From contig NZ_JBHSTI010000008.1 in the NCBI RefSeq assembly GCF_042660085.1, forward strand, positions 420,001 to 452,000: a DNA stretch of 32,000 nt, in the 5' to 3' direction. Within the stretch, counting starts at the first letter, position 1. Each line of letters starts with the position of its first letter. The notes beneath the pieces were generated by a model. It had not been told where the DNA came from. It was given only the letters and a program-made list of their open reading frames with translations, and made no database searches. The DNA is from Longivirga aurantiaca (GTDB lineage Bacteria; Actinomycetota; Actinomycetes; S36-B12; CAIYMF01). The position numbers and the translations under genes were made by a program. Below, in pieces: positions 8,238 through 27,802 of this stretch.

Positions 8238-10328
8238 TCAGTCGACGCCGAGGGAGCGCTTCAGGAAGTCGAGCTCGAGCAGCAGCTTGTTCTCGGCGAC
8301 CTCCTCCTGCGGCGTCATGTGCGTGACGCCGGACAGCGGCAGCACCTGGTGCGGGCGACCCGCGACCGTGAGCGCCCCGGACAGCGCGAGCGTGTGGGCG
8401 ACCACCACGTTGTCGTCGGTGAGCCCGTGGATGATCATGAGCGGCCTGGAGAGCCCGGGTGCGAGCGTCATCAGGCTGCCGGCGTCGTACGGCGCGGGGT
8501 CGACGGCCGGGTTGCCGAGGTAGCGCTCGCTGTACGTCGTGTCGTAGAGCCGCATGTCGGTCACGGGCGCACCGGCGACGGCGGCATGGAACACGTCCGG
8601 CCGCTTGAGCACTGCGAGCGCCGACAGGTAGCCGCCGAACGACCACCCGCGGATTCCGACGCGCGTGGTGTCGACGTCGTCAGGCCAGCAGGCGGCTACG
8701 GCCTCGAGCGCCGTCACCTGGTCTGCCAGGACGACGTCGGTGAGGTCGTGGTGCACGGCGCGGTCCCAGGCGGGACCGCGCCCCGGGGTGCCGCGGCCGT
8801 CGGCGACGACGACGCAGAAGCCCTGGTCGGCGAGCCACTGGTCCTCCCCGAACGACAGGCCGGACGCGAGCACCTCGGCGTGGTGCGGGCCGCCGTACGG
8901 GCTGAGGACCACCGGGAGCCGGCGGGAGCCGGGCTCGTGGTCGCTCGGCCACAGGACGGCGGTGACGATCGCGAGGTCGCCCGCGGCGATGACCTCGACC
9001 TTCGGGGTCACGGCCGGTACCTCGGCATGGGTCGTGACGGGGATCGCGCGGCCGCCCGAGCGCACCTCGTACGTGGTCGCGGTCGAGTCGAGCGTGCGGC
9101 CGACGAGGAGGTCGGTGCCGCCCGACGTGCGCCCGGCCCACCAGGCCTGGCCGTCGGCCACGACCGAGAGGGTGCCGTCCCACGCCACCTTCACGAGCGA
9201 GGACGAGAGCGGGTCGGGCGCGGTGGCCACCAGCACGCCGTCCGCGTCTACGTCGACGACCCCGCGCACCTGCACTCCTGCCGGCGTGAGCCAGCCATCA
9301 CCGAGGTGCAGCCGGTAAGTGTCGCTGGCGCGGTCCGGGCGCAGCGTCAGGAGGCGGCCGTCCGGCGTCCAGCGGAACGCGCCGGGGGAGGCGTCGACCC
9401 ACTGCTCGTCCGTGATCTCCGCGACGGTCCGCGTCTCCCCGGTCGCGACGTCGACGGCGAGCACGGCGAACGTCCGCTGGTCGCGCGTGGAGACGACCAC
9501 GAGCGGGTCGCCGTACGACGTCCACGAGACGTCGACGAGGTACTCGAACGCGGCAGAGTCCCACCGGACGTCCGCGGACGACCCGTCGAGCCGCACGACG
9601 GCCAGCGACACGAGCGCGTTGGGCGTGCCTGCCGCGGGGTAGCGGTGCGGCCGCGGGCGCTGGTCGGGGTGCAGCGGGTCGGCGATCCACCACTCGTTCA
9701 CCGGTGTCTCGTCGACGCGCTCGACCAGCACGGCGTCGGACGAGGGCGACCACCAGAAGCCGCGCGAGCGGTCGAGCTCCTCGGCTGCGGCGAAGTCGGC
9801 GAGGCCGCAGGTCTCGAGGGCGTGCGCCGGCTCGGCGAGAGCACGGTCGTCGGACCCGTCGGAGCGCACGAGCCGCAGCGACCGACCGGATACGTAGGCG
9901 ACGTGCGCGCCGTCGGGCGACAGCCTCGGGTCGATCACCGGGCCGGGCACGTCGAGGGCGTGGATGTCGCCGTCGTCGAGCGATCCGCCGTACAGGCCGC
10001 CGGACAGCGCGAAGACCGCGTGCGTGACGGCGTCGTCGGTCGAGTAGCCGACGATGCCGGCGTTGCCCTCGCGCATCCGCTCGCGGCGCGCACGCTCCTC
10101 CACCGACAGCTCCTCGGCCCCCGAGTGCAGCATGGTCGGGTCGGCAGCCAGCCGCTCGACGCCGCTCTCGACGTCGAGCACCCAGAGCCTGCCGACGACG
10201 TCGGTGCCGGACGCCGAGCGCACGAACACGACGCGGCGGCCGTCGGGGGACAGGGTGAACAGGCGCGGCGCCCCGGCGCTGAAGCGGTGGGTGCGGGCGC
10301 TGTGCCGGGGGAACGACGACGTTGTCAT
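8238..10328 (-). CDS. S9 family serine peptidase (prolyl oligopeptidase / dipeptidyl aminopeptidase type)
   Basis: 696 aa. It has an N-terminal propeller-like region and a C-terminal alpha/beta-hydrolase domain, with nucleophile elbow GWSFGGY, Asp in HGLTDDNV and a C-terminal His (GVTHM). Confidence 0.9.
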
Positions 10329-10384
10329 GGCGGGAGTCTTTCACCGCCGACGCGTGCGCACCGACGGGGTTAGGCTCACCTCTC

Positions 10385-11275
10385 GTGACCTCTCCCGCAG
10401 CTGACCACCGCATGCTCCTCGTGCACGCTCACCCCGACGACGAGACGATCGGCACCGGCGCCACGATGGCGAAGTACGTCGACGCCGGCGCCCACGTCGC
10501 CCTCGTCACATGCACCCTCGGCGAGGAGGGCGAGATTCTTCTCGAGGAGCACGCGCACCGAGCCGCCGACCGCGACGACAGCCTCGGCGAGCACCGCAGG
10601 ATCGAGCTCGCCGACGCCATGACGGCGCTCGGGGTGACCGACCACCGGCAGCTCGGTGGCGACGGCAGGTACCGCGACTCCGGGATGATGGGTCTTCCGG
10701 ACAACGACGACCCCACGTGCTTCTGGCAGGCCGACCTGCTCACCGCGGCGTCGGACCTCGTCGCGGTGATCCGCGAGGTGCGCCCGCAGGTGCTCGTCAC
10801 GTACGACGACTTCGGTGGCTACGGCCACCCCGACCACATCCAGGCGCACCGCGTCGCGATGTACGGCGCGATGCTCGCCGCAGCGCCGTCGTTCCGGCCG
10901 GACCTCGGCGAGGCCTGGGACATCGCGAAGATCTACTGGACGGCGTTCCCGAAGTCGATCGTGCGCGCAGGCATCGAGGCGCTGCGGGCTTCGGGCGAGA
11001 CCACCGGCTTCGCGGCCATGGACCCCGACGACATGCCCTTCGCGTGCGACGACGCCCTCGTCACGACCACGATCGACGCCGAGGACTGGCTCGACCGGAA
11101 GATGGCGGCGATGGCTGCCCACGCCACCCAGATCAGCCTCGAGGACGGCTTCTTCGCGCTCTCGAACAACCTGGGCTCGCGCGCGTTCGGCCGGGAGTAC
11201 TTCCGCCTCGTGAAGGGCCAGACGGGCCCGCTCGACGAGTCCGGCCACGAGACCGACCTGTTCGCCGGCATCTAG
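10385..11275 (+). CDS. mshB: LmbE/PIG-L family deacetylase, likely mycothiol-pathway GlcNAc-Ins deacetylase MshB
   Basis: Zinc motif [10 protein letters not shown] and second motif GYGHPDH. Size is about 296 aa. The position between the typA region and fdxA-dapC matches other actinobacteria. The start is GTG 10385 (no overlap with the peptidase gene) or ATG 10412. Confidence 0.8.
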
Positions 11276-11302: not shown

Positions 11303-11737
11303 ATGCGGGTCGGACCGTGGATGGCGGTGCCGCTGGGTGCGCTGCTGCTGGCCGCCTGCGGCACGTCGGGATCGCCGACCCCCACGTTCACCCCCGGCGA
11401 TCCCCTTCCGGAGTCGAAGTTCGTGCCCGGCCCGAACGCCTCGTACATGGGCCTGGTCCTCACCGGCGAGCTCGTGCTCGGGCCTGACGGCTGCCTCCGT
11501 CTGGATCCCGTGCCGGCGAGCATGGCCAGCGGCGTCACCGACATCCTCTGGCCGGTCGGCACGACCCTCCGCATGCTCCCGTCCGGCCAGGGCGAGGTCG
11601 TCTGGCCCGACGGCACCGTCGTCGCGACCACGGGGGAGCAGTTCAGCGCCTCGGGCGGCTTCACCTCGCACAGGGCCGAGCCGCCGTGCATCGGCGACGG
11701 CGGTGCCTTCCAGCTCGAGGCGGTCCTGGAGCCCTAG
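11303..11737 (+). CDS. Small secreted lipoprotein, function unknown
   Basis: N-terminus MRVGPWMAVPLGALLLAAC-GTSG (lipobox LLAAC). Codon GC3 bias is coding-like. I recognise no family. Confidence 0.55.
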   Translation: MRVGPWMAVPLGALLLAACGTSGSPTPTFTPGDPLPESKFVPGPNASYMGLVLTGELVLGPDGCLRLDPVPASMASGVTDILWPVGTTLRMLPSGQGEVVWPDGTVVATTGEQFSASGGFTSHRAEPPCIGDGGAFQLEAVLEP

Positions 11738-11921: not shown

Positions 11922-13928
11922 GTGCAGATGGCACAGCGGCGGACCGACTCGGCGGCCATGCTCAACGAGGCCGGAACGGGGAGCTTGGCTGCCCGCGACG
12001 GCGACGTGGGGGAGTCCCGGGAGCGCTCGCGCCGTCGACGCCTCTGGGGCCTGTTCGCCCTGCTGCTGCTGCCCGCCGCCTACCTGTGGAGCCGGATCTC
12101 CGCCGGCGACCCCTTCGACATCCTCTCGATCACCCTGCCGCAGATCGACGCGATGGTGCTCATCCCGGCCCTCTTCTTCATCACGCTCATCGCGATCCTC
12201 GTGGGCTCGACCGTCGGTGCCGGCCGCTCCCCGCACGTCACCTACCGCCCCGAGCAGATCGACACGCGCCTCGACGACGTCATCGGCATCGACGGCGTGA
12301 AGGAGGACGTGGTCCGCTCTCTCAACCTGTTCCTCGCGCACAAGGCGTTCGCGAGCGAGATGGGCGGCACCCCGCGCCGCGGCCTGCTCTTCGAGGGCCA
12401 GCCCGGCACCGGCAAGACCTACCTGGCCAAGGCCATGGCCCGCGAGGCCGGCGTCCCCTTCCTCTTCGTGTCTGCGACGTCCTTCCAGTCGATGTACTAC
12501 GGCGCCACCGCGCGCAAGATCCGCTCGTACTTCAAGGCGCTGCGCAAGGCCGCTCGCCAGGAGGGCGGGGCGATCGGCTTCATCGAGGAGATCGACGCCA
12601 TCGCCATGGCCCGCGGCGGCCTGTCCATGACGCCGATGCCCATGACGCGCTCGAACGCGGCCCTGTGCTGCGGCGGACTCGACGGGCTCCCCGGCCAGTA
12701 CGCCGGCGCCGCGCAGTCGCTCTCGGTCGTCTCCGCCGCCGCCGGCGGCGGTGGCGCTGTCGTCCGCAACGCCTCGATGACGAGCGAGGGCGTGGGCGGC
12801 GTCGTCAACGAGCTGCTCGTGCAGATGCAGTCCTTCGACGACCCGACCGGCTTCCAGAAGCTGCAGTCGTGGCTCGTCGACAAGGTCAACCTCTTCCTCC
12901 CGGCGAACCGTCAGATGAAGCGGCCCGTGCCGCCCGTCACCAACGTGCTCGTCATCGCGGCGACCAACCGGGCCGACAACCTCGACCCCGCGCTGCTGCG
13001 CCCGGGCCGCTTCGACCGCCGCCTCTCGTTCGAGGCGCCGGGCAAGGCCGGCCGGCGCGAGCTCATCGACTTCTTCCTCTCGCGCAAGTCGCACGTGGCC
13101 GAGCTCGACACCGAGGAGGTGCGCGACAGCCTCGCCTCGGTGACCCAGGGCTACACCCCGGTCATGATCGAGCACCTCTTCGACGAGGGTCTCGTCAACG
13201 CGCTGCGCCGCGGCGAGCAGGCGATGAACCGCCAGGACGTCGAGCGCGCCCGCCTCGTCGAGGAGGTGGGCATGGGCCAGCCCGTGGCCTACACCGAGCA
13301 CGAGCAGCGCCTCATCGCCACGCACGAGGCCGGCCACGCCGTCGCCGCCTGGCTCACCGCGCCTCAGCGCCGCCTCGAGGTGCTGACGATCATCAAGCGC
13401 AAGGACGCCCTGGGCATGCTGGCCCACGGCGACGCCGAGGACGTGTTCACGCGCTCGCGCTCGGAGATGACCGCGCTGATCCAGATCGCGATGGGCGGGC
13501 AGGCCGCCGAGGAGCTGTTCTTCGACGACGTCAGCACCGGGCCGTCGGGCGACCTGCTCTACGCCACCAACGTGGCGGCCCAGATGATCGGTGCGGCCGG
13601 CATGACCGACACGCTCATCTCGTACGCCGCCATCCAGGGCTCCGCGCTGAGCGACTCCAACCTGGTGGGCAAGGTGCTGCAGGACGCCGAGGGCCGCGCC
13701 CGCGTCGAGAAGCTGCTGCAGGACCAGAAGGCGTACACCCGCGCGCTGCTGAACGAGAACCGGCACCTGGTCGAGGCGCTCCGCGACGCTCTGGTCGAGC
13801 GGCACGAGCTGATCGGCCGCGAGATCACCGACATCCTCGAGCAGGCCAACGCTGCGCGGGCCGAGTCCGTCGTCGACGTCCGGACCGGTGCGGCGCGACC
13901 GGAGGCCGCGGTTACGCTCGAGGGGTGA
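11922..13928 (+). CDS. Atypical FtsH-like membrane AAA+ ATPase / M41 zinc metalloprotease
   Basis: Two N-terminal TM helices. Walker A GQPGTGKT, Walker B IGFIEEID, pore loop MYYG, SRH IAATNRADNLDPALLRPGRFDRR, and zinc site HEAGHAV with a downstream GGQAAEE. The start is GTG 11922 or ATG 11928. Confidence 0.87.
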   Translation: MQMAQRRTDSAAMLNEAGTGSLAARDGDVGESRERSRRRRLWGLFALLLLPAAYLWSRISAGDPFDILSITLPQIDAMVLIPALFFITLIAILVGSTVGAGRSPHVTYRPEQIDTRLDDVIGIDGVKEDVVRSLNLFLAHKAFASEMGGTPRRGLLFEGQPGTGKTYLAKAMAREAGVPFLFVSATSFQSMYYGATARKIRSYFKALRKAARQEGGAIGFIEEIDAIAMARGGLSMTPMPMTRSNAALCCGGLDGLPGQYAGAAQSLSVVSAAAGGGGAVVRNASMTSEGVGGVVNELLVQMQSFDDPTGFQKLQSWLVDKVNLFLPANRQMKRPVPPVTNVLVIAATNRADNLDPALLRPGRFDRRLSFEAPGKAGRRELIDFFLSRKSHVAELDTEEVRDSLASVTQGYTPVMIEHLFDEGLVNALRRGEQAMNRQDVERARLVEEVGMGQPVAYTEHEQRLIATHEAGHAVAAWLTAPQRRLEVLTIIKRKDALGMLAHGDAEDVFTRSRSEMTALIQIAMGGQAAEELFFDDVSTGPSGDLLYATNVAAQMIGAAGMTDTLISYAAIQGSALSDSNLVGKVLQDAEGRARVEKLLQDQKAYTRALLNENRHLVEALRDALVERHELIGREITDILEQANAARAESVVDVRTGAARPEAAVTLEG

Positions 13929-14398
13929 GCCACTCTCGGGAGAACGCCAGCACGATCGTGCTGATGGGCTTCCTCGGGGTGCTGCTCGGTCTCGTCGGGT
14001 CGGTCGTGTCGGCCGCACGCGTGCAGGTCGGGTCCGTGACCGTGCCGTGGGGCGCCCTCCTGGCTGCCCTCACGCTCGCCGTGGCCGTCCGCGCCGTCGT
14101 CTGGTCGAGCCGCACGCGGCTCCAGGGCGCTGTGCTCCTCGGAGGCTGGGTCGTGGCCACCAGCGTCGTGCTCCTCGTCTCGCCCGGCGGCGACGTCCTG
14201 CTGCCCGGCGTCCCGCGCAGCTACGTGTACCTCGGCAGCGCCTTCGTCCTCGGGCTGGCGGCGCTGGTCTGGCGCCTCCCGGAGGGCCACGGCGACCTCA
14301 TCGAGAGCGAGGCCGCCCTGGTGCCGGGCGACAGTGGCGCTGTCCTGCCCTCCGGAGACCTGCCCGAGCCTTCAGGGGAGGGCCCGGACGTCCGATGA
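13925..14398 (+). CDS. 4-TM integral membrane protein, unknown function
   Basis: This is the last 157 codons of the 866-aa track ORF. The GTG at 13925 overlaps the upstream TGA (GTGA). There are four hydrophobic helices (IVLMGFLGVLLGLVG..., VPWGALLAALTLAVAV..., GAVLLGGWVVATSVVLLV, YVYLGSAFVLGLAALVW) and an acidic Pro-rich tail. Confidence 0.6.
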   Translation: MSHSRENASTIVLMGFLGVLLGLVGSVVSAARVQVGSVTVPWGALLAALTLAVAVRAVVWSSRTRLQGAVLLGGWVVATSVVLLVSPGGDVLLPGVPRSYVYLGSAFVLGLAALVWRLPEGHGDLIESEAALVPGDSGAVLPSGDLPEPSGEGPDVR

Positions 14399-14405
14399 CG
14401 GACGT

Positions 14406-14924
14406 GTGAGCCTTCATCCGCCCGGCGGGTCGCCGACCTGGTTCGACGACGACGTCGAGGACCTCGACGCGGTTGCGACGCTCGAGCACGTACTGGTCAG
14501 GCTCGGTGCCGGCCGCTACGCCGTCGCCGCCCGGCACGTGGTGGAGGTCGTGCCCGTCCCCGGGCTCACGCGGGTTCCCGCTGCCCCCTCCTGGCTCCTC
14601 GGGGTCGCCAACTGGCGCGGTCACGTGCTCCCTGTCGCCGACCTGCGCCCGCTCCTCGGGGTGGCGCCCACGCCTCTCGCCTCGAGCGCCCGTGTCGTGG
14701 TCATCCGGTCCGACGACGTCGAGGTGGGGTTCGTGGCCGACCAGGTGCTCGGGCTGCTCGACGTGCCCGAGGACCACGACCCGGCCCCCGTCACGCTGGC
14801 GGCCGAAGCCTCGGACCTCGTGGTCGGCCTTGCGGACGACGGCTCGGTGACGGGCCCGGTCGCTCTCCTGGACGCCTCCGCCGTGCTCGGGCTCGCCCGC
14901 GCGCACCCATCTCGACCCCGTTGA
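14406..14924 (+). CDS. cheW: CheW-like coupling protein
   Basis: CheW domain pattern: HVLVRLGAGRYAVAARHVVEVVPVPGLTRVPAAPSWLLGVANWRGHVLPVADLRPLLG. The GTG at 14406 lies 7 nt after the preceding stop; the track ORF start at 14334 overlaps the upstream gene. Confidence 0.85.
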   Translation: MSLHPPGGSPTWFDDDVEDLDAVATLEHVLVRLGAGRYAVAARHVVEVVPVPGLTRVPAAPSWLLGVANWRGHVLPVADLRPLLGVAPTPLASSARVVVIRSDDVEVGFVADQVLGLLDVPEDHDPAPVTLAAEASDLVVGLADDGSVTGPVALLDASAVLGLARAHPSRPR

Positions 14925-14969
14925 CCCCTTCAGGTGACGCCGTGGGTGCCGACACACACGTAGGGACCC

Positions 14970-16577
14970 GTGGGGGGTCTCGCGCGGCGTAGTGCGGGAG
15001 CAGTCGTGGAGTTCAGCAAGCGCATCGCGGTGATCGCGGGCGTCGCCACCTGGGGGTGCGTCGTCCTCGGTCTGGTCGCGGCCTACCTGACGCTGCAGTT
15101 CGTGCCCGGGGCACCGGTCGACCTGGTGCAGACCTGGGCCTGGACGGCGTTCGGAGCGGCCCTCGCCGGCCTCACGTCGTACCTCGCCTGGCGCGCGCAC
15201 CGGTCAGGTGCCGTCCTCGAGCAGTCCCTCAAGGTCGGCCGTGTCCTGCTGGTCGCGAACGTCGTCTACATCACCGGCCTGGCCTGTGCGAGCGGCGGCC
15301 TGCTCGGGTCGGCCTCGGTCCTCCTGGCCGTCAACGTGCTGTTCGCCTCGTTGCTGTTCTCGCGCTGGACCCTGCCCCTCTTCGCGCTCCTCCTCTCGGC
15401 GAGCATCGCCGTCACCGGCACGATCACCGGCACCTGGACCGGGTCGGCGCTGCCGCTCGGCCTCATCGCGCTCGTGGCGCTGCCGGCGATGACCCTCATC
15501 GGAGGCCAGCTCATCGAGGCCGTCCTCGCCTTCGGCAGCAAGTCCTCGCGCGAGCGCAGCGAGCTCTCGGCCCGTGTCGACGCGCTGACCTCGCAGCTCG
15601 AGCGCGCTGCGGCCGGCGACCTGTCCGCGCGCATCGACGTCGCCGCGATGGCCGACGTCGACGACTCCGAGGTCGACACCGTCGCGGTGCTCTCGACGTC
15701 GGTCAACGAGGCGCTCGAGAACCTCGCCACACTGGTCGAGCAGGTGCGCAGCGGCGGCGAGCAGATCGCCGCGAGCGCCACCGAGCTGCTCGCGAACGCC
15801 GAGGAGCACGCCGCCAGCGCCACCCAGCAGTCGTCGGCCGTGGCCGAGACCACCTCGACCATCGAGGAGCTCGCCGCCACAGCCGCCCAGATCGCCGAGA
15901 CGGCCGAGGCCGTCGCCCGCTACGCCGCCGAGACGCTCCGGCACGCCGAGCAGGGCCGGCAGGCCGTCGCGGCCTCGGTGCACTCGATGGACCAGATCGC
16001 CGACCGCGTGGACTCGATCGCGACGCGGGCCCTGTCGCTCGGCGAGAAGAGCCAGGAGATCGGCCGCATCCTCGAGGTGATCGACGACCTCGCCGACCAG
16101 ACCAACCTGCTCGCGCTCAACGCCGCCATCGAGGCGGCACGGGCGGGCGAGCACGGCCGTGGCTTCGCGGTCGTGGCGACCGAGGTGCGCAAGCTCGCCG
16201 AGCGCTCGCAGGAGTCAGCCGGCCAGATCCAGGCGATCGTCGCGCAGATCCAGACCGAGACCCACGCGACCATCCTCGCGACCGAGGACGGCAGCAAGGA
16301 GGTCCACGCCGGCGCCGAGCTCGCTCGCGATGTCGTCGAGGCCCTCGAGCGCATCTCGGGCATGGTCGACGAGACCACGACCGCGGCCAAGGAGATCTCG
16401 ATCGCGACCCAGCAGCAGCGCTCGGCGTCCGACCAGGTCGTGGCCGCGATGACCCAGGTGTCGGACGTGTCGCGTCAGTACGCCGTCGGCTCCAAGCAGT
16501 CCGCCGCAGCGGCGGCCCAGCTCACGATGCTGTCGGCTGAGCTGCGCGAGTCGATCCAGCGCTTCCGGGTGGCGTGA
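14970..16577 (+). CDS. Methyl-accepting chemotaxis protein with a 6-TM N-terminal module
   Basis: Highly conserved MCP hairpin tip [37 protein letters not shown]. There are six N-terminal hydrophobic segments and a HAMP-like [10 protein letters not shown]. The alternative start GTG 15006 has GGGAG 5 nt upstream. Confidence 0.92.
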
Positions 16578-16586
16578 GGCTCACCC

Positions 16587-18818
16587 ATGGCCTGGTCCGA
16601 CAACCCGGAGCTCGCGGCGAGCTTCCGTCACGAGGCGGCGGAGCGCTCCGCGTCGCTGCGTGACGGGCTGCTCGCGCTCGAGGGCTCCGCGCAGCCGCGC
16701 CAGGCGGCGACCGCGCTCATGCGCGACGCCCACACCCTCAAGGGTTCCGCGACGATGTTCGGCGCCGCCGAGGTCGTCGAGCTCGCCCACCGCGCCGAGG
16801 ACCTCCTCGCCCGTGTGCGCGACGGCCGGGTGGCCGTGCGCCGCGATGTCATCGACCTGCTGCTGCTCGCGACCGAGCTGCTGTCCCGCTGGCGCCCGGG
16901 CGAGGAGTGGGCCGTGCCCGCCGACGTCCGCGCCGACACGCTCGTCTCGCTCGACGCCGCCATCTCGGGCCGGGAGTCGGTCGAGGTGCCGCGGCTGCCC
17001 GCCGAGCCGTCGCCCGTCGCGGCCGAGGCTCCCGACGCCGCAGCGGAGGAGCTGCCGTCGGCGCACGCAGGCGGTCGCCTCGGCGACCAGGTGAGGGTGC
17101 CGACCCGCCGCGTCCACGGGCTGCTCGACGTCGTCGGGGAGGCCGAGCTCGACGTGCGCCGGGTCGAGCGCCATACCCGCGAGCTGAGCGACCTCCTGTC
17201 CGAGCACCAGGTGCTGGTGAAGCAGCTGCGCGCCGCCCTGCTCGCGGGCGGCTCGGTCGGCGAGCTCGGCGACCGCGTCACCGCGATGGTGGGGGTCGGC
17301 GACCGCCTGCACGCCACCACCCGCGACCTGCGCTCCCGGACCGAGGACGCCGGCAACCGCCTCGCCCGCGTCCGCGACGGCGCGATGGGTCTCGCGATGG
17401 TGCCGGTACGCCGCGTGGCCGCCGCCTTCCCCGCGCTCGTCCGCGAGGTGGCGGGTGCCTCCGGCAAGGATGTCGAGCTGGTGCTCGACGGGGCGGACGT
17501 CGAGCTCGACGTCCGCGTGCTCGACGGCGTCGCCGACGCCCTGCGCCACCTCGTGACCAACGCCGTCGACCACGGGTGCGAGACGCCCGACGGCCGTGCC
17601 GCCGCCGGCAAGCCGCGACGGGCCATCGTCACCCTGGCCGCCCGCACGGCGGGCTCCTCCGCCGTGGTCGAGGTGGCCGACGACGGCGCCGGTGTCGACG
17701 ACGACCTGCTCCGCGAGATCGCGGTCCGCCGCGGCTACCTTCCCGAGGGCACCACGGCGTCGGGGTCGGTGCTGCACCAGGTGCTGTTCGAACCCGGCTT
17801 CTCCACGCGCGAGGACGTCACGACCACGTCCGGCCGCGGCGTCGGCCTCGACGTGGTGCGCTCCGCGGTGCAGGAGCTCGGCGGCACGATCGAGGTCGTC
17901 AGCACGCTCGGCCTCGGCACCCGGTTCATCCTCACGCTCCCCGTCACCCTCGGTGTGGCCCGCTGCCTGCTCGTCCGCTGCGGCACCGAGCGGTACGCCG
18001 TCCCCCTCGCCGGAGTGGTCGAGACCCTGTCGCTCGGCGACGTGGCCGTGCACGACGTGGCCGGCTCGCTCGTGATCTCGCGCGAGGACTCGGGCGCGAC
18101 GATGCCGCTCGCCGACCTCGGCGAGGTGCTCGGCGTCGTGGGGGCCCGATCGCCGCGCGCGGTCGTCGTCGCCCGTCTGACCGGTGAGTCGGTCGCGTGG
18201 GCGGTCGACGAGGTGGAGTCCGAGCGCGAGGTCGTCGTGAAGAGCCTCGGCGACTTCCTGGGCCGGGTCCCGGGAGCGGCCGGCGCCACGATCGACGACG
18301 ACGGCTCGGTGCTCCTGCTCGTCGACCTCCGCGAGCTGGCGCTGCGCTGGACCGGCTCTGCCTCGCTCGGCGCCGGCGTGCCCGAGCCGCTCGCCACCGA
18401 GACCTCCGGCGCCGCACCGCGCGAGCGCGACACCGCCGAGGGCCAGGGCCGGGCCCGGGTGCTCGTCGTCGAGGACTCCCTCGGCGTGCGCGAGCTCCAG
18501 CGGTCGATCCTCGAGGGCGCCGGGTACGACGTCGTCACGGCGGTCGACGGCCTCGACGGCGCGGCTCGGCTGCAGGGCGGACCGGTCGACCTCGTGCTCT
18601 CGGACGTCGAGATGCCGGGCATGGACGGCTTCACCCTCACGCGCACCATCCGCAAGACCCGCGGCTGGGAGAACGTCCCCGTCGTGATCATGACCTCGCG
18701 CGGCGACGACGCCGACAAGCGCGCCGGGCTCGACGCCGGCGCGGACGCCTACCTGCTGAAGCGGGAGTTCGACCAGCGCGCGCTGGTCGACACCGTGCGT
18801 CGGCTCGTGGGCCGGTGA
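16587..18818 (+). CDS. cheA: Hybrid CheA histidine kinase with a C-terminal receiver domain (Hpt-dimerisation-HATPase-CheW-REC)
   Basis: Hpt His in MRDAHTLKGSATMFG. P3 is VRVPTRRVHGLLDVVGEAEL. P4 is NAVDHG...DDGAGVD...TSGRGVGLDVV...GTRFILTLP, followed by a P5 CheW-like region. REC is VLVVEDS...DLVLSDVEMPGMDG...VIMTS...AYLLK. Confidence 0.92.
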   Translation: MAWSDNPELAASFRHEAAERSASLRDGLLALEGSAQPRQAATALMRDAHTLKGSATMFGAAEVVELAHRAEDLLARVRDGRVAVRRDVIDLLLLATELLSRWRPGEEWAVPADVRADTLVSLDAAISGRESVEVPRLPAEPSPVAAEAPDAAAEELPSAHAGGRLGDQVRVPTRRVHGLLDVVGEAELDVRRVERHTRELSDLLSEHQVLVKQLRAALLAGGSVGELGDRVTAMVGVGDRLHATTRDLRSRTEDAGNRLARVRDGAMGLAMVPVRRVAAAFPALVREVAGASGKDVELVLDGADVELDVRVLDGVADALRHLVTNAVDHGCETPDGRAAAGKPRRAIVTLAARTAGSSAVVEVADDGAGVDDDLLREIAVRRGYLPEGTTASGSVLHQVLFEPGFSTREDVTTTSGRGVGLDVVRSAVQELGGTIEVVSTLGLGTRFILTLPVTLGVARCLLVRCGTERYAVPLAGVVETLSLGDVAVHDVAGSLVISREDSGATMPLADLGEVLGVVGARSPRAVVVARLTGESVAWAVDEVESEREVVVKSLGDFLGRVPGAAGATIDDDGSVLLLVDLRELALRWTGSASLGAGVPEPLATETSGAAPRERDTAEGQGRARVLVVEDSLGVRELQRSILEGAGYDVVTAVDGLDGAARLQGGPVDLVLSDVEMPGMDGFTLTRTIRKTRGWENVPVVIMTSRGDDADKRAGLDAGADAYLLKREFDQRALVDTVRRLVGR

Positions 18819-18851
18819 GACCCATGACGGGTGCAGAGGCAAGGACAGAGG

Positions 18852-18873
18852 CGCGTGCGGCAGGGACCGCACG
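18852..18873 (+). promoter_or_regulatory. Small intercistronic hairpin between cheA-REC and the REC-GAF gene
   Basis: 8-bp stem GCGTGCGG / CCGCACGC with a 6-nt loop. It sits in the 88-nt gap and is flanked by the purine-rich direct repeats CAGAGGC. Confidence 0.3.
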
Positions 18874-18906
18874 CCTCCGGAGCGCGACGACGGAAGAGGC
18901 GACGAC

Positions 18907-19905
18907 ATGACGTACGGGAAGCCCACGGCAGTGGTGGCGGACGACAGCCCCACCCTGCGTCGGATCGTGACCGGCGTGCTGCAGGACGCCGGCTTCGAGG
19001 TCGTCCTTGCCGAGGACGGCGTCGAGGCGGTGCAGGCGGTCTTCCGCACGATGCCCGACGTCGTGATCCTCGACGTCCAGATGCCGCGCGTGTCCGGCTA
19101 CGTGGCCGCGCGGGTGCTGAAGGACGACTGGCAGACGGCGGACCTGCCCGTGCTCTTCCTCACCTCCCTGAACGCCGCGAGCGACCGCTACTGGGGCGCT
19201 CGCGCGGGTGCCGAGCGGTTCCTCACCAAGGACTTCGAGGCGCCCGAGCTGGTCGAGGCCGTCCGTGGCGCGATCCTGACCGCGGAGCGGGCCCGGGGCG
19301 GGCGGCAGTCGATCAAGGCCGACCCGCTCGAGCTGACCGACGACGACGTGCTGGCGCGGGTCTGCGACCTGTTGGACCGCAAGCTGTTCGAGGCGTCGGT
19401 GACGCAGGACGTCACGACCATCGCGGCCGACGTGCACGGGTTCGAGGAGACCGTGGCCGCCGTGCTGTCGGCGATGGAGGCGATCGTCGACTGCGACCTC
19501 GCCGCCGTGCTGCTGCTCGACCCGCACCGCGAGGCCCCGGACGCGACGTACGTGTCGGTGGCACGTGAGGTGACCGACCAGCAGTACCTCGAGATGCTCG
19601 AGGCGATCGCCGGTGCGGCCGAGCAGGCGACCGGTGTGCCGACCGCCGCGCACGAGCTGCTGCCGATGATCGCCGACCCGCACGGCCGTCTCGGCGCCGC
19701 GGACGCGGACACCGTCGAGAACCCCGGTCTCGCGACGTTCCTGTCGATGCCGCTGCGTGCGGGCGGGCGGCTGCTCGGTGTGCTGGCCCTGTCGAGCTCG
19801 TCGCCGAACGCCTTCGGGGAGTCGGCGCTCACCACGCTGCGCCTCGTCGCGCCGCCTGCGGCCGTCGTGATCGACCACGCCCGCCTGTCCGGCGTACGGG
19901 TCTAG
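18907..19905 (+). CDS. Response regulator with a receiver domain and a C-terminal GAF-like domain; no DNA-binding or enzymatic output recognised
   Basis: REC motifs: VVADDS, DVVILDVQMPRVSG, VLFLTS, FLTKD. The C-terminal ~170 aa has GAF-like features (CDLAAVLLLD..., SMPLRAGGRLLGVLALSS). Confidence 0.8.
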   Translation: MTYGKPTAVVADDSPTLRRIVTGVLQDAGFEVVLAEDGVEAVQAVFRTMPDVVILDVQMPRVSGYVAARVLKDDWQTADLPVLFLTSLNAASDRYWGARAGAERFLTKDFEAPELVEAVRGAILTAERARGGRQSIKADPLELTDDDVLARVCDLLDRKLFEASVTQDVTTIAADVHGFEETVAAVLSAMEAIVDCDLAAVLLLDPHREAPDATYVSVAREVTDQQYLEMLEAIAGAAEQATGVPTAAHELLPMIADPHGRLGAADADTVENPGLATFLSMPLRAGGRLLGVLALSSSSPNAFGESALTTLRLVAPPAAVVIDHARLSGVRV

Positions 19906-19953
19906 TCCGCCTCCCGCCGGGCTTCGACCCGCCCACAGGGTTAGGGTCGCCTT

Positions 19954-20481
19954 ATGGGCGCTGCGGAGATCGGGATGGGAGCCGTCCGCGCGGCGGAGTT
20001 CCGCACGGTCATGAGCCGGTTCGCCACCGGTGTCACCGTGGTGACCTGCGTGCAGGAGGGGTTCGACCACGCGATGACGGCGAACGCGTTCGCCTCGGTG
20101 TCGCTCGACCCCGCGCTCGTGCTGGTCTGCGTGGAGGACGACTCCCGGTTCCACGAGGCCGTGCTCCATGCCGGGGCGTGGAACGTGAACGTGCTCGAGG
20201 AGGGCCAGCGCGGGCGCGCCTCCTGGTTCGCCACCAGCGGCCGGCCCCTCGTGGGGCAGTTCGACACGACCCCCACCCGGCGCTCCGCCGAGACGGGTGC
20301 GCTGCTCCTCGACGGCTGCCTCGCCACGCTCGAGTGCGTGACCGAGTCGGTGCACCGTGCCGGCGACCACGACATCCTCATCGGCCGAGTGCTGGGCATG
20401 GAGCTCGCCCGGCCCGAGGGGCGGCCGCTGCTCTACTTCGCGAGCTCCTACGGCACGCTCGGTGATCCCGCCGCGCGATGA
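19954..20481 (+). CDS. Flavin reductase family protein (HpaC/NADH:FMN oxidoreductase-like)
   Basis: FRTVMSRFATGVTVVTC...DHAMTANAFASVSLDPALVLVCV is the typical flavin_reduct domain pattern. Length is 175 aa. Confidence 0.85.
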   Translation: MGAAEIGMGAVRAAEFRTVMSRFATGVTVVTCVQEGFDHAMTANAFASVSLDPALVLVCVEDDSRFHEAVLHAGAWNVNVLEEGQRGRASWFATSGRPLVGQFDTTPTRRSAETGALLLDGCLATLECVTESVHRAGDHDILIGRVLGMELARPEGRPLLYFASSYGTLGDPAAR

Positions 20482-20715: not shown

Positions 20716-22548
20716 GTGACTGCCACGCCCGACACCACCTCGCCCGACCAGACCGCGCCGGACCCTGCGTCCCGCGGCTGGCAGCGACCCCTGTTGTGGG
20801 TGGGTATCGCGGTGCTGCTGCTCGGGGCGTTCTACGCCGCCCTGGTCGCCTCCAGCGGCGACGGCCTGCCCCGTGGGGCGAAGGTCCTCGGTGTGGACGT
20901 CGGCGGCCTCTCCGAGGCCGAGGCGGCCGCGAAGCTCGACGCCGAGCTCGGGCCGGCGGCGACCGACCCCGTCAACGCCACCATCGGCGAGGACTCGGTC
21001 AGCATCGTGCCCGCGGACGCCGGCCTCAGCTTCGACGCCGAGGCCACGGTCGACGGCTACGCCGGCCGTATCTGGAACCCCGTCACGCTGATCCTGCAGT
21101 TCACCGGCGGCCCGACGCTGGCGCCGGTCATCGGTGTCGACCAGGCCGCGCTCGAGGCCACGGTGAAGCAGCTCGCGATCGACAGCGACACCGCGCCGGT
21201 CGAGCCGAGCATCGAGGTGCGCGGGTCCGACGCCGTCCTCATCAACGGCATCAACGGCCGTGCGATGGACCAGCCGGCGGCCGTCCAGGCGCTGGCATCG
21301 GCGTACCTCGTGTCGACCCAGACCGTCGACCTCCCCGAGATCGAGACCACCCCGTCGGTGCCCCAGGACAAGGCCGACGCGGCGCTGGTCGTCGCGAAGG
21401 CTGCGATCTCCGGGCCCGTGACCGTGAAGGCCGGCAAGGTGACGGCGGACATCCCCGCCGAGGCGATCGGCCGCGCCCTCGCATTCACCCCGGAGAACGG
21501 CGAGCTGGTCGGCTCGCTCGACGGCGCGATCCTGCGCACCTCGATCGAGGACGACCTCGCGCCGGTCGAGAAGCCCGGCCGTGACGCCACCTGGGATGTC
21601 TCGAGCGGCAAGCCCGTCATCGTGCCGTCCAAGGTCGGCAGGGGCATCAACCCGGACGACCTCGCGGTCGCGGTCGCCGGTGTCATGGGCCAGACCTCCG
21701 CCGCAGCCCGCGTCGTGACGCCGGAGCTCGGGACGATCCAGCCGAAGCTCACCACCGAGCAGGCCGAGAAGCTCGGTGTGGTGGAGAAGCTGGGCTCGTT
21801 CACGCAGAACTTCCCGTACGCCGCCTACCGCGTGCAGAACATCGGCACCGCCGCCCGTTACATCAACGGGACCCTGCTCAAGCCCGGCGAGGTGTTCTCC
21901 CTGAACAAGATCATCAAGGAGCGCACGGTCGCCAACGGCTACACCAAGGGCTTCGTGATCGGCCCGGGCGGCGTGTTCAAGGAGGACCAGGGCGGCGGCG
22001 TCTCGGCGTCGGCCACCACGGCCTGGTCCGCGGCGTTCTACTCCGGTCTCGAGCGCGTCTACACCCAGGCGCACTCGATCTGGATCCCGCGCTACCGCGC
22101 GGGCCTCGAGGCCACGGTGGCCTGGGGCGCGTTCGATATGAAGTTCAGGAACGACACCAAGAACGGCGTCTTCATCACGACCGTGATGACGAACACCTCG
22201 ATGACCATGACCCTCTGGGGCACCAAGGTCTACGACGACATCCGGGCCGTCTCGAGCGCGAAGCGCAACACCGTGCCGTTCGACACGCTGTACGACCCGT
22301 CGCCGACCTGCAACGCGCAGGGCGGCCAGGTCGGCTTCACGATCGACGTGTTCCGGGTCTTCATCAAGGACGGCAAGGAGGTCAAGCGGGAGAAGATCAC
22401 CACCCGCTACCGCCCCTCGCCGACGGTCATCTGCGGCACCGACCCCAAGGACGAGCCGACCCCGTCGCCCTCGCCCTCGGGATCGAGCACGAAGTCCCCC
22501 TCGCCCAAGCCGTCGTCCACCAAGTCCCCGTCGCCGTCAGCGACCTGA
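20716..22548 (+). CDS. VanW-domain membrane-anchored protein with a Pro/Ser-rich C-terminal tail
   Basis: N-terminal TM helix (LLWVGIAVLLLGAFYAALVA). YoaR-like region (VLGVDVGGLSEAEAAAKLDAEL). VanW core (FPYAAYRVQNIGTAARYINGTLLKPGEVFSLN...GGGVSASATTAWSAAFYSG). Tail is PTPSPSPSGSSTKSPSPKPSSTKSPSPSAT. Confidence 0.85.
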   Translation: MTATPDTTSPDQTAPDPASRGWQRPLLWVGIAVLLLGAFYAALVASSGDGLPRGAKVLGVDVGGLSEAEAAAKLDAELGPAATDPVNATIGEDSVSIVPADAGLSFDAEATVDGYAGRIWNPVTLILQFTGGPTLAPVIGVDQAALEATVKQLAIDSDTAPVEPSIEVRGSDAVLINGINGRAMDQPAAVQALASAYLVSTQTVDLPEIETTPSVPQDKADAALVVAKAAISGPVTVKAGKVTADIPAEAIGRALAFTPENGELVGSLDGAILRTSIEDDLAPVEKPGRDATWDVSSGKPVIVPSKVGRGINPDDLAVAVAGVMGQTSAAARVVTPELGTIQPKLTTEQAEKLGVVEKLGSFTQNFPYAAYRVQNIGTAARYINGTLLKPGEVFSLNKIIKERTVANGYTKGFVIGPGGVFKEDQGGGVSASATTAWSAAFYSGLERVYTQAHSIWIPRYRAGLEATVAWGAFDMKFRNDTKNGVFITTVMTNTSMTMTLWGTKVYDDIRAVSSAKRNTVPFDTLYDPSPTCNAQGGQVGFTIDVFRVFIKDGKEVKREKITTRYRPSPTVICGTDPKDEPTPSPSPSGSSTKSPSPKPSSTKSPSPSAT

Positions 22549-22757
22549 CGCCGCACCGCCCCTCCTCCGGGTGAGCGGGCTCCTGAGCGTCCCAGCGTCG
22601 CGCGCGCCTCGGAGGTGCCGACGTCGCGCGCTCAACGGTGACGCCAGGTATGCGCTCGCAGGCTCTTGCGTCATTGTCGTGCGCGGAGCGTGACCGTCCA
22701 GGAGACTGCGCAGACGGCTCGTGGGGGGATCCCCGGCCCCGTACACCGGAGGACTAC

Positions 22758-24770
22758 GTGCCGCTCGCCTTCTCGCCGTCCTGGGACGGTTCGTTCGCAC
22801 GACGCACCGGCGCCGTTGCTGCTGCCGGCCTGGCGCTCGCCACCCTGCCCGTGCTGGGAGCGGATGCCGCCACCGTGAACGAAGGCAGCCGCGATACGTC
22901 CTTCAGCAGCGACGCTGTGGCGGAGATCCCGCGGAGCTCGATCTCGTCCGCCGAGTTCGGCTCCGATGTGGACGTGCAGGCGGACGGTCGGGCGGTGGTG
23001 GTGGGGTCGGCGAGCACCACCAGCGGCCAGCGCGGCGTGGTGTACCGGCTGACGACCTCGGGCGCTCGCGACACGACGTTCTCCGGCGACGGGCGACTGC
23101 TCGTGTCGGCCGCTGGCGCGGCCCTCAACCTGACGGCCGTCGCGGTGATGGCTGATGGACGGATCGTCGTCGCGGGTCAGACGGTCGACGCCGACTCGGC
23201 GTTCGTGGTCGTGCGGTTGACCACCGACGGGGGGCTCGACAAGACGTTCGACACCGATGGCGTGGCCATCTTCAACCCGACGGCCCCAGGATCGGACGCG
23301 CCGATCGGTGTGGCGGTGCGTGCCGACGGGAGGGTGCTCGTCGCTGGCCGGACCCCGACCGGCGCGATCCTCGTGCGGTTCTCGAGCGCGGGCGTGCTCG
23401 ACACCGGCTTCGCCAACGGGTTCACCTACGAGACCGTCACCAACCTCACCAACCCGCTCGGGATGACGGTCGACCCCTCGGGGCGCGCCGTGATCGTGGG
23501 CTCCGTCGGCACCCCCGCGGCCAACCAGGACGCGTCGATCGCTCGGTTCACCGCCGAGGGCGTGCTCGACACCACCTTCGACGTCGACGGCACCAGGGTC
23601 CTCGTCGCGTCCGTCGGTGCCGCCGACTCACTGTTCGGTGTGGGCATCGATCCGTTCGGCCGGATCGTCGCGGGTGGACGGGCCAGCATCGGAGGCGTGC
23701 GGCGCGTGCTGGGCGTGCGCCTCCTGGACTCGGGGGCCAACGACCCGTCCTGGGCAGGCGGCGCATTCGCCACGCCGGAGCTGCCTGTCGGCGCGGGCGC
23801 GCCTCCCATTGACGCGTTGGTCCAGTCCGTCGCCCTGACGCGCGACGGGCGGCCGCTGCTCTCGATCGAGGACGGCGGCCTCCGCGCGCTCGTCGTCCGC
23901 TTGACGTCCGCAGGCGCCCTCGACACGACCTTCGGGCAGACCGGTACAGACGGTCTCGCGTCCGCCTCCTTCCCGAACCCCGGGGGAGGCGTCCAGCCGC
24001 TGCTGGTCGAGGGGATGGATGTCGGGCGCGACGGTCGGATCACCGTCGCAGGAACGATCGACTACGCGGGGGCGGCAGGCACGCGGATGATGGCGGCCCG
24101 TCTGCTGGGTGACCGCACGCCGCCGTCCGCGGCGGCCATGGTGGCCGTGCCGACCATCAGCGTGCTGGGCACGCGGACCATCGGCTGGACCGCAGGTGAC
24201 GACAACACCGGCGTGGCGTCGTACGACGTGCTCTACAGCGCGGCCACGGCGACGTCGGGTTCATTCGGTGCGCTCACCACCTGGAAGTCGCGGACGCCGT
24301 CGAAGACGGGCTCGTTCACCGGCGCGCCGGGGGTCACTTATTGCTTCAGGGCACGCGCGTACGACCGCGCAGCCAACGAGGGCGCCGCAGGTGGTCGCAG
24401 CTGCTTGGCGTTCCCGGTCGACGACCGCGCACTGACGCGTAGCGGCTCGTGGTCCGCCAGCACCAGCAGCGCCGACTACCGCGGCACCACCCTGCGCTCC
24501 ACGACGCTCGGCTCGTCGCTCAGCCTCGCGGGGGCCGACTACCGCCGCCTGGCCCTGGTGGCCACCACCTGCGCCGCGTGTGGCTCGGTGAAGGTCTACC
24601 GCGGGAGCACGCTGCTCACGACGATCTCGTTGGTCTCGGCCACGACCAAGCACCGCGTGGTCATCCCCATCTCGGGCTCCTCGACGATCCGCTCGGGGAC
24701 GATCACGGTGCGCCAGGCGTCGAGCGGCAAGGCCGTCATCATCGACGGACTCGTCGTCGCACTCCTCTGA
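22758..24770 (+). CDS. Secreted protein with about 7 delta-60-type repeats (predicted beta-propeller) plus C-terminal Ig/Fn3-like and beta-rich domains
   Basis: A unit of about 55-60 aa recurs seven times: G-x-LDTTF-x-x-DG ... DGR(I/V)VVAG. The signal-peptide-like FARRTGAVAAAGLALATLPVLGADA follows a GTG at 22758, which has GGAGGA 4 nt upstream. The track ORF start at 22638 adds 40 non-signal residues. Confidence 0.75.
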   Translation: MPLAFSPSWDGSFARRTGAVAAAGLALATLPVLGADAATVNEGSRDTSFSSDAVAEIPRSSISSAEFGSDVDVQADGRAVVVGSASTTSGQRGVVYRLTTSGARDTTFSGDGRLLVSAAGAALNLTAVAVMADGRIVVAGQTVDADSAFVVVRLTTDGGLDKTFDTDGVAIFNPTAPGSDAPIGVAVRADGRVLVAGRTPTGAILVRFSSAGVLDTGFANGFTYETVTNLTNPLGMTVDPSGRAVIVGSVGTPAANQDASIARFTAEGVLDTTFDVDGTRVLVASVGAADSLFGVGIDPFGRIVAGGRASIGGVRRVLGVRLLDSGANDPSWAGGAFATPELPVGAGAPPIDALVQSVALTRDGRPLLSIEDGGLRALVVRLTSAGALDTTFGQTGTDGLASASFPNPGGGVQPLLVEGMDVGRDGRITVAGTIDYAGAAGTRMMAARLLGDRTPPSAAAMVAVPTISVLGTRTIGWTAGDDNTGVASYDVLYSAATATSGSFGALTTWKSRTPSKTGSFTGAPGVTYCFRARAYDRAANEGAAGGRSCLAFPVDDRALTRSGSWSASTSSADYRGTTLRSTTLGSSLSLAGADYRRLALVATTCAACGSVKVYRGSTLLTTISLVSATTKHRVVIPISGSSTIRSGTITVRQASSGKAVIIDGLVVALL

Positions 24771-26541: not shown

Positions 26542-26610
26542 GTGCCGATCGTGACCCACGCCGCCCGGATCGGCACGTCACGGCCCCCGGCGTGTCCCAC
26601 CCCGCACGCC

Positions 26611-26665
26611 GAGACTGATCGATCCGTTGCTTCCGGGCCCGAGAAACGACGGATCGATCAGTCTC
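26611..26665 (-). terminator. Strong hairpin downstream of the GNAT gene
   Basis: Perfect 17-bp stem GAGACTGATCGATCCGT / ACGGATCGATCAGTCTC with a 21-nt loop. It begins 12 nt past the GNAT stop codon (26678-26680). Confidence 0.6.
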
Positions 26666-26677
26666 AGCGGAGGGGCG

Positions 26678-27685: not shown

Positions 27686-27700
27686 GCTGCGACCCCTTCG

Positions 27701-27728
27701 TAGACATGGTTCGGTGGGTCGGGATACT
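27701..27728 (+). promoter_or_regulatory. Candidate sigma-70-type promoter for fdxA
   Basis: TAGACA, a 16-nt spacer, then GATACT, in the 117-nt divergent gap between the GNAT gene and fdxA. This is a pattern match only. Confidence 0.25.
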
Positions 27729-27802
27729 AGGCGGCAGGCCCCGCCGCTACCGTGGCCAGCACCGTTCGTCGTCAGCACGTGGATCGGAAGGATCCGGAAC
27801 AC

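Follow-up and report, generated by a model that had tools for sequence, protein, structure and literature searches.

A compact chemosensory locus of Longivirga aurantiaca is probably a clade-specific, minimal member of the non-flagellar kind of chemosensory pathway represented by alternative cellular function (ACF) and Wsp-like systems. The locus lies in a stretch of 32,000 nt from the forward strand of contig NZ_JBHSTI010000008.1 (positions 420,001-452,000; assembly GCF_042660085.1), referred to here as the window; L. aurantiaca is placed in the Sporichthyaceae, Sporichthyales. The core of the locus encodes a CheW coupling protein, a methyl-accepting chemotaxis protein (MCP) of 40H length with multiple transmembrane (TM) segments, a CheA kinase fused to a receiver (CheA-REC) and a receiver-GAF protein (REC-GAF), and a unit made of these four components has been conserved in about 75 loci of the Sporichthyales, Frankiales and Acidothermaceae type. 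The pathway is best described as one that no longer has adaptation genes or a second CheW at its locus, and that ends in REC-GAF in place of REC-GGDEF.

To our knowledge, the outputs of most non-flagellar chemosensory pathways are unknown and very few of these pathways have been described in Actinobacteria. The module reported here is compact and holds one fixed chromosomal position, with one receptor type, one CheW, a CheA-REC, a REC-GAF and no local adaptation enzymes. It has been kept across an order-level clade that includes the cultured L. aurantiaca, which makes it experimentally approachable. It also offers a testable context for DUF6113, for a distinctive FtsH paralogue and for a Ser-for-Cys variant of VanW. 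No relevant literature was found on Longivirga, DUF6113, the che genes of Frankia or a linkage between FtsH and CheW.

Conservation and class of the chemosensory core

The CheA-REC protein was scanned against one genome per species, which yielded 80 loci. About 60 of them are actinomycete metagenome-assembled genomes (MAGs) with CheA identities of 46-87%, labelled Sporichthyaceae, Frankiales/Frankiaceae, 'Nanopelagicales' and Mycobacteriales. The other 19 (30-39% identity) belong to further phyla, chiefly Verrucomicrobiota, Acidobacteriota and Myxococcota. All window proteins were mapped onto the loci. The clade set consists of 75 loci (1.19 Mb) of the Sporichthyales/Frankiales/Acidothermaceae type. 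In 57 of 59 loci, REC-GAF comes no more than 400 bp after CheA, and the CheA-REC architecture is kept in those orthologues whose gene calls were read.

The MCP begins with six to seven membrane-embedded segments, predicted from hydropathy, without a periplasmic domain. These are followed by a HAMP-like linker and a signalling domain that runs to the C-terminus and carries no pentapeptide. Residues 7-284 of its cytoplasmic part align ungapped, over 278 residues, to residues 273-550 of PcaY (6s18), which is the end of that protein. The MCP is 28 residues, or four heptads, longer than Tsr and matches CtpM end-to-end. PcaY and CtpM are receptors of the 40H type, and the alignments class the MCP as a 40H-length receptor. 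Mean conservation is 0.39 in the TM region versus 0.82 in the signalling domain; the input probably varies and is probably sensed inside the membrane.

The number of MCP copies per locus ranges from one to five. Some relatives, namely L006, L009, L010 and L013, carry three to five tandem MCP genes between CheW and CheA. The signalling domains of these tandem receptors are highly similar and their TM/sensor regions are 12-20% identical, a divergence that suggests rapid diversification of the input.

CheA-REC comprises an Hpt domain (H49), HATPase_c, a CheW-like P5 domain and a C-terminal receiver (D673), with no recognisable P2 domain, and its partner CheW is the sole stand-alone CheW of the locus. 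Two features are those of an ACF system, namely a CheA with a C-terminal receiver and a receptor of 40H length. The 40H type is the cognate receptor of ACF systems in Actinobacteria, whereas those Actinomycetes that have flagella rely mainly on F5 systems, in which the receptors are 38H and CheA has two CheW domains (PMC10746217). The pair of CheR and CheB that normally belongs to an ACF cluster is absent from all 75 clade loci. The F classes fit less well: the CheA has one CheW domain and a receiver, the receptor is of 40H length, and neither the 32 kb nor the flanks of the relatives hold CheY, CheR, CheB or flagellar genes.

The closest known counterpart is found in the Wsp system of Pseudomonas. 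The two share a receiver at the C-terminus of CheA, a membrane receptor of 40H length, a non-motility architecture and a dedicated output protein with a receiver, encoded beside CheA. The Wsp set includes the REC-GGDEF output WspR, two CheW-like proteins (WspB/D), a CheR with TPR (WspC) and a CheB (WspF). In contrast, the module has a single CheW, lacks CheR and CheB at the locus in all 75 relatives and has REC-GAF as its output. The N-terminus of its receptor is multi-TM and membrane-embedded, whereas that of the Wsp receptor has a periplasmic domain, and its associated genes encode DUF6113, a flavin reductase, VanW and an FtsH paralogue. Outside the clade, the nearest CheA-REC genes sit in Wsp-ordered operons. 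One example is L073, in which the order is MCP, CheW, CheR-TPR, CheW, CheA-REC, CheB and a receiver-containing output; the full Wsp-like set was seen only in distant loci such as this one. The ACF systems reported in a few Actinobacteria, for instance Actinoplanes, share with the module the phylum Actinomycetota and the 40H cognate receptor (PMC10746217). That source is a survey of flagellar evolution whose ACF cases include zoospore-forming Actinoplanes, and it does not describe a REC-GAF output, DUF6113 or an FtsH linkage; the likeness drawn here is one of class.

Output and adaptation

REC-GAF is the putative terminal element of the pathway. Its receiver residues D13, D56, T86 and K108 are intact, and conserved motifs are found in both the receiver (SDRYWG) and the GAF domain (FLSMPL). 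Sequence and profile searches against the PDB matched only the receiver half, with the GAF domain giving a marginal match when searched alone (E~0.01). Since REC-GAF has no enzymatic or DNA-binding domain, it most likely works through phosphorylation-dependent protein contacts or through oligomerisation of the GAF domain.

In the proposed mechanism, the 40H-length receptor with its multi-TM/HAMP input region, the single CheW and the P2-less CheA would assemble into a signalling complex. CheA phosphorylated at H49 would then pass its phosphoryl group to its own fused receiver at D673 and to REC-GAF at D56, a transfer to which the intact motifs point, and phosphorylation of REC-GAF would control its contacts or its oligomeric state.

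Adaptation genes are missing from the locus. Pfam searches of the 24 open reading frames (ORFs) supported by third-position GC (GC3), together with both candidate frames of an unassigned region at 26.6-27.7 kb described below, detected no CheR, CheB, single-domain CheY, CheZ/C/X, flagellar or pilus family in the window. Searches by phmmer with the catalytic domains of CheR and CheB likewise found no match there. Across the 1.19 Mb of clade loci neither gene was seen (0/75), and hidden copies looked for in the cluster insertions of L049, L024 and L166 were not found. In the non-actinobacterial CheA-REC loci, some of which are on short contigs, CheR lies beside 12 of 19 and CheB beside 15 of 19.

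The receptor calls for a caveat. Among 67 receptors, the Q/E pairs of the methylation helices at positions 286, 293, 300 and 517 are nearly invariant, with exchange between Q and E at each: 52 Q and 11 E at Q286, 62 E and 4 Q at E293, 62 E and 5 Q at E300, and 44 Q and 15 E at Q517.

A first-pass annotation, made from the letters of the window, had read the locus as a reduced phosphorelay of the non-flagellar kind that has two receivers and a GAF domain as its terminal element, with no CheR, CheB, CheY, CheZ/C/X, flagellar or pilus gene in the 32 kb. Pfam and phmmer bear out these absences, and the CheA-REC, the 40H length and the lack of flagellar genes nearby set the che genes outside the standard flagellar classes. 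As far as the locus goes, its architecture and intact motifs support the phosphorelay. As to cheR and cheB just outside the window, neither lies near the che genes in any of the 75 related loci. The description of the system as free of adaptation stands for the enzymes encoded at the locus and does not extend to the receptor, in which the Q/E pairs are conserved with exchanges.

Module boundaries and DUF6113

The 4-TM protein encoded upstream of CheW in the window scores 17.7 bits (E=0.003) against PF19608, below the cutoff of 27. However, 19 of 23 of its positional orthologues match this family, with a best E value of 7e-18, and precomputed matches exist also for the orthologues of L081 and L173. 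The DUF6113 assignment is thus sound for the group of orthologues as a whole. Hydropathy predicts four TM segments, and the loop that joins TM3 to TM4 carries a conserved P(E/G)GD motif. A model built from a 15-sequence alignment (pLDDT 65, pTM 0.37) supports the four-helix topology only.

Wherever it is present, DUF6113 adjoins the 5′ side of CheW, and a profile built from these orthologues finds no copy elsewhere in the fetched loci. The two genes overlap by 4 nt in L171 and L173 and are separated by 7 nt in the window, L167, L169 and L170. DUF6113 is absent from seven loci of one sub-lineage, where the FtsH-like gene and CheW are 60-215 bp apart.

The upstream edge of the module is revealed by loci in which its genomic context differs. 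In L169, of the Acidothermaceae type, the order DUF6113-CheW-MCP-CheA-REC-REC-GAF-Flavin_Reduct-VanW stands behind an Mrp antiporter operon; this is the only Acidothermaceae-type locus with downstream sequence. The same upstream edge occurs behind Mrp in L170 and behind a PP2C gene in L027. In all three loci, the 3.6-8.7 kb 5′ of the module hold neither an FtsH-like gene nor mshB. A homologue search with the DUF6113 protein of L027 returned only 14 close relatives of the Acidothermaceae type; in other actinobacteria, DUF6113 may come after mshB. In L033 (Frankiaceae), the order is mshB-DUF6113-CheW, with no FtsH-like gene in between. These arrangements indicate that the stable unit starts at DUF6113 and leaves the FtsH-like gene outside: it consists of DUF6113, CheW, one to five copies of MCP, CheA-REC and REC-GAF, and extends to VanW in L169. 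An ancestral pairing of FtsH with DUF6113 was considered and ruled out, as no DUF6113 is found beside the che-less FtsH-like genes. FtsH is known with the modulators YccA and HflKC, and in the window a small multi-TM protein is encoded directly 3′ of the protease; a relation of DUF6113 to YccA is an analogy only.

The FtsH-like protease

An NCBI entry named 'AAA family ATPase [Longivirga aurantiaca]' matches the FtsH-like protein at 100% identity, with a start placed by NCBI at the ATG at 11928 (666 aa). Its N-terminus has two TM segments, predicted by hydropathy, which are joined by an outer loop of about 17 residues and leave no periplasmic domain. Its motifs include Walker A (GQPGTGKT), a variant Walker B (IEEID), a YYG pore loop, the arginines of the second region of homology and the intact HEAGH of the M41 Zn-protease domain. 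With FtsH of E. coli and TIGR01241 it shares the two-TM N-terminal anchor, the M41 HEXXH motif and an AAA domain in which Walker A, arginine fingers and an aromatic residue in the pore loop are all present. It differs from FtsH in that it lacks a periplasmic domain, has EE rather than DE in Walker B, carries a variable insertion in the AAA domain and scores 285.5 bits against TIGR01241 (FtsH_fam), far below the equivalog cutoff of 600. By sequence it classifies as a second, non-housekeeping paralogue of the FtsH superfamily, neither the housekeeping FtsH nor an FtsH orthologue. The insertion is a low-complexity stretch rich in Gly, Ala and Ser at about residues 237-290 (window 12630-12790). 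It is largely lineage-specific, and members from other groups lack most of it in an alignment of the subfamily (A1).

An exhaustive search of cluster representatives delimited a small subfamily (43-61% identity) with RSPH after TM2 and the motif IGFIEEIDA. Members that have no adjacent che genes (46-57% identity) carry the same signature motifs, and no che-specific feature was seen in the clade's own FtsH-like copies. One che-less branch is found in Acidimicrobiales: the gene stands alone there amid genes of the mycofactocin and luciferase-like kinds, and che genes, mshB and DUF6113 are all missing. In L082-L084, which represent this branch, it stands just 3′ of a mycofactocin (mftA-B-C...) cluster and between genes for luciferase-like monooxygenases, which is again a flavin/redox neighbourhood. 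Another branch, of the P0123 type, belongs to a different actinobacterial group and was sampled in 80 metagenome loci (L085-L164), in none of which does a che module adjoin the FtsH-like gene. Two of the 80 (L145 18070-19966 and L147 17100-20442) contain an F5-like CheA, with two CheW domains and no receiver, together with a CheW. These genes are 6-8 kb 3′ of the FtsH-like gene with ABC transporters between, and their proximity is probably coincidental. The che-less branches in Acidimicrobiales and the P0123 group indicate that the subfamily is older than the che module and independently distributed.

Within the clade, the association is close. Of 36 informative che-anchored loci, 34 have the FtsH-like gene 5′ of CheW, in the same orientation and less than 3 kb away (less than 1 kb in 33 of the 34), and exact-sequence look-ups of six FtsH-like homologues (69-78% identical) found the che module next in all six. 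The gene is directly preceded by mshB in 30 of 32 related loci. In Longivirga it is probably co-transcribed with the module, because its stop codon overlaps the start of DUF6113 by 4 nt.

The first-pass annotation had counted the protease among the seven linked genes and suggested a coupling of the MCP array to regulated membrane proteolysis. The FtsH-like and 4-TM genes do accompany the che genes in most relatives, which goes against the first refutation that the annotation had foreseen. The coupling itself is borne out only in part: adjacency conserved in one lineage and the GTGA overlap speak for it, while the protease is absent from L169, L170, L027 and L033 and its subfamily occurs elsewhere with no adjacent che genes. 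The module boundaries are corrected here to place the protease outside the stable unit. The link is positional and restricted to Sporichthyales/Frankiales, where the gene sits between mshB and the module, and the protease is a neighbour rather than a demonstrated component; its direct functional coupling to the module is unlikely.

Flavin reductase and VanW neighbours

The region 3′ of REC-GAF is looser than the core. A flavin reductase follows REC-GAF in 24 of 45 loci and VanW lies downstream in 23 of 45; one or both occur in 31 of 45, with unrelated genes in the remaining 14. L169 carries both, so that the adjacency of VanW noted in the first-pass annotation is conserved and includes a second genomic context.

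The NCBIfam scores of the flavin reductase fall below every equivalog cutoff. Among the P0123-type loci, 46 are informative, and in 21 of these the gene directly 5′ of the FtsH-like gene, on the same strand, encodes a Flavin_Reduct protein (an example from L147 is given in Table 1). These proteins are 31-44% identical to the window flavin reductase and are possible orthologues of it. Apart from these and from the copies after REC-GAF, no Flavin_Reduct gene was found in the 2.27 Mb of fetched loci.

The VanW protein shares its architecture, a TM segment followed by PG_binding_4 and VanW domains, with Ldt4/Ldt5 of C. difficile. The VanW family has recently been shown to consist of L,D-transpeptidases, for which a catalytic Cys is essential (PMC11348318). 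In contrast, the VanW domain of the window protein (124.8 bits, about residues 372-501) contains no cysteine, and neither does that of any of the 34 che-linked orthologues, in which a Ser in GGGVS, a His and an Asp are invariant. The Cys-His-Asp triad of a VanW-type L,D-transpeptidase is thus missing. The Ser presumably occupies the position of the Cys in the motif GGG[VI]CQ. The variant may use a Ser nucleophile or may not be a transpeptidase, and its presence hints at a cell-wall-related output with altered chemistry. Together, the frequent flavin reductase and the Cys-less VanW downstream would suggest that the output concerns the membrane or the cell wall and not motility.

Alternative explanations

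The FtsH paralogue could instead be the true partner of the chemosensory genes, with the array controlling regulated membrane proteolysis. REC-GAF might then serve as a phosphorylation-dependent adaptor or anti-adaptor of the protease and DUF6113 as its modulator or substrate, or the protease might turn over the receptor. Such an arrangement has a small chance of being correct. It draws on the constancy of the FtsH-like gene upstream of CheW (34/36) across CheA identities of 46-87%, on the six look-ups, on the GTGA overlap with DUF6113 in the window, on the short distance to CheW where DUF6113 is missing, and on Flavin_Reduct genes, which neighbour both the che module and che-less FtsH-like genes. 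Receiver-domain adaptors of AAA+ proteases such as RssB and CpdR are established precedents, and in Caulobacter a chemoreceptor is degraded by ClpXP under the control of CpdR. Here, however, the likeness to CpdR/RssB, namely a receiver protein lacking an enzymatic output and an AAA+ protease, is drawn from gene proximity, the protease is of the FtsH family and not ClpXP, and the proposed contact between REC-GAF and protease follows from gene position and precedent. Acidothermaceae-type loci and L033 have the module but not the protease, and the protease subfamily occurs without adjacent che genes, with the same motifs, in Acidimicrobiales and the P0123 group. Furthermore, the housekeeping gene mshB is an equally constant neighbour (30/32), so gene order here is well kept whatever the function; synteny extends over the entire typA...dapD region in the clade, which makes conserved adjacency alone weak evidence of function. 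A more elaborate version, in which the array controls envelope homeostasis through REC-GAF as a phospho-dependent adaptor of the FtsH paralogue, with DUF6113, the flavin reductase and the Cys-less VanW as co-regulated clients or effectors, is rather improbable. We know of no described pathway that leads from chemosensory signalling to regulated membrane proteolysis or cell-wall remodelling, and interest in the locus would rise sharply if a protease or cell-wall link were demonstrated.

The module might also be the receptor/kinase branch of a conventional taxis network, with CheR, CheB (or CheD), CheY and motility genes elsewhere in the genome. The near-invariant Q/E pairs of the receptor are in keeping with this, and Sporichthyaceae include some motile organisms. 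Nevertheless, a CheA-REC and a 40H receptor are not the F5 class, 38H receptors and two-CheW-domain CheA typical of flagellated Actinomycetes (PMC10746217), a dedicated REC-GAF accompanies CheA in 57 of 59 loci, CheY is as absent as CheR and CheB from the 1.19 Mb of clade loci, and the module is found in many MAGs of Frankiaceae and Frankiales. A taxis network is therefore a very unlikely home for these genes. A narrower reading limits the functional unit to CheW, MCP, CheA-REC and REC-GAF and treats DUF6113, the flavin reductase, VanW and the FtsH-like protein as syntenic neighbours. The seven loci that lack DUF6113 and the replacement of the flavin reductase and/or VanW by unrelated genes in 14 of 45 loci would fit such a unit. 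Yet DUF6113 (L027, L169 and L170) and the flavin reductase and VanW (L169) remain with the che genes in a different genomic context, and DUF6113 and CheW frequently overlap by 4 nt; a unit restricted to the four genes is accordingly judged highly improbable.

The reading of the locus as a minimal ACF/Wsp-like system has its own difficulties. The association of the FtsH-like gene with the che genes is nearly absolute in both directions in its lineage (34/36; 6/6), with short same-strand gaps, and a functional tie between them may exist in that lineage. The FtsH-like gene, the flavin reductase and the che genes are moreover linked pairwise in different lineages, which keeps a functional connection of protease and che genes alive without proving it. 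The conserved Q/E pairs may hint at methylation, and hence at CheR and CheB encoded elsewhere in the genome, in which case 'minimal' would be true only of the locus. Finally, the class assignment is one of length, architecture and neighbours rather than of MiST class hidden Markov models, a single-sequence AlphaFold2 model of REC-GAF was unusable (pLDDT 39.8), and no output target was identified.

Gene content of the window

The window has a GC content of about 72%, and its genes were chosen by GC3 and then by Pfam. Between 11922 and 20481 lie seven ORFs on one strand, spaced by -4, 7, 45, 9, 88 and 48 nt (Table 1), and the coordinates, gaps and domain calls given earlier for this run were all reproduced from the sequence, Pfam and hydropathy. 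GC3 is 0.93-0.97 for five of the seven; the 4-TM and CheW ORFs failed the GC3 screen. The GTGA stop/start overlap between the FtsH-like gene and DUF6113 is at 13925-13928. The gap between CheW and MCP becomes 81 nt if the MCP starts at 15006, and an in-frame TAG at 14961 rules out earlier starts. Scans of 10-23 kb for sigma-70 promoters and intrinsic terminators found none and are uninformative at 72% GC, and Rfam detected no RNA family in the window.

Table 1. Genes of the chemosensory locus and its neighbours in the window, with a comparison pair from locus L147.
Feature	Sequence	Position	Strand	Basis or remark
PIG-L deacetylase, mshB-like	window	10322..11275	+	PF02585, E=4e-29
FtsH-like protein, AAA + Peptidase_M41	window	11922..13928	+	Pfam
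DUF6113 4-TM protein, 157 aa	window	13925..14398	+	weak Pfam match and orthologue group
CheW coupling protein	window	14406..14924	+	PF01584, E=1e-28
MCP (MCPsignal)	window	14970..16577	+	Pfam, E=1e-46
CheA-REC hybrid, Hpt + HATPase_c + CheW + Response_reg	window	16587..18818	+	Pfam
REC-GAF, Response_reg + GAF	window	18907..19905	+	Pfam
Flavin reductase, Flavin_Reduct (HpaC/FerA-like)	window	19954..20481	+	PF01613, E=2e-39
Membrane-anchored protein, PG_binding_4 + VanW	window	20716..22548	+	Pfam; 234-nt gap after flavin reductase
Flavin_Reduct	L147	8583-9182		upstream of FtsH-like gene; Lactamase_B_2 before it
FtsH-like	L147	9692-11770		

The flanks of the locus are housekeeping: typA, an Opp-type ABC transporter, an S9 peptidase and mshB upstream, and ferredoxin, dapC, citrate synthase and dapD downstream. 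The mshB gene is a positional anchor of the locus and lies outside the module. Between it and the FtsH-like gene, an ORF of 144 aa (window 11303-11737) encodes a lipoprotein-like protein with the lipobox LLAAC; it has no match in Pfam or NCBIfam and no counterpart in the closest relatives, L001 and L004 (87% CheA identity). Further downstream, a stretch of about 1.1 kb (window 26560-27750) holds overlapping long ORFs at 26627-27703 (+) and 26664-27707 (-), neither of which matches Pfam; the plus-strand frame is also without an NCBIfam match. A 710-aa DUF5122/delta-60 beta-propeller repeat protein is encoded 3′ of VanW (window 22638-24770); most relatives lack it there.

In L044, L005 and L007, VanW is followed by an additional receiver gene, which encodes an ordinary regulator of the OmpR type. 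In two Frankiales loci that have neither the flavin reductase nor VanW (L040 13804-17017 and L076 14301-17570), a CysS-like ligase, possibly of the MshC type, and a protein that resembles extracytoplasmic function (ECF) sigma factors and has a long C-terminal extension are both encoded shortly 3′ of REC-GAF.

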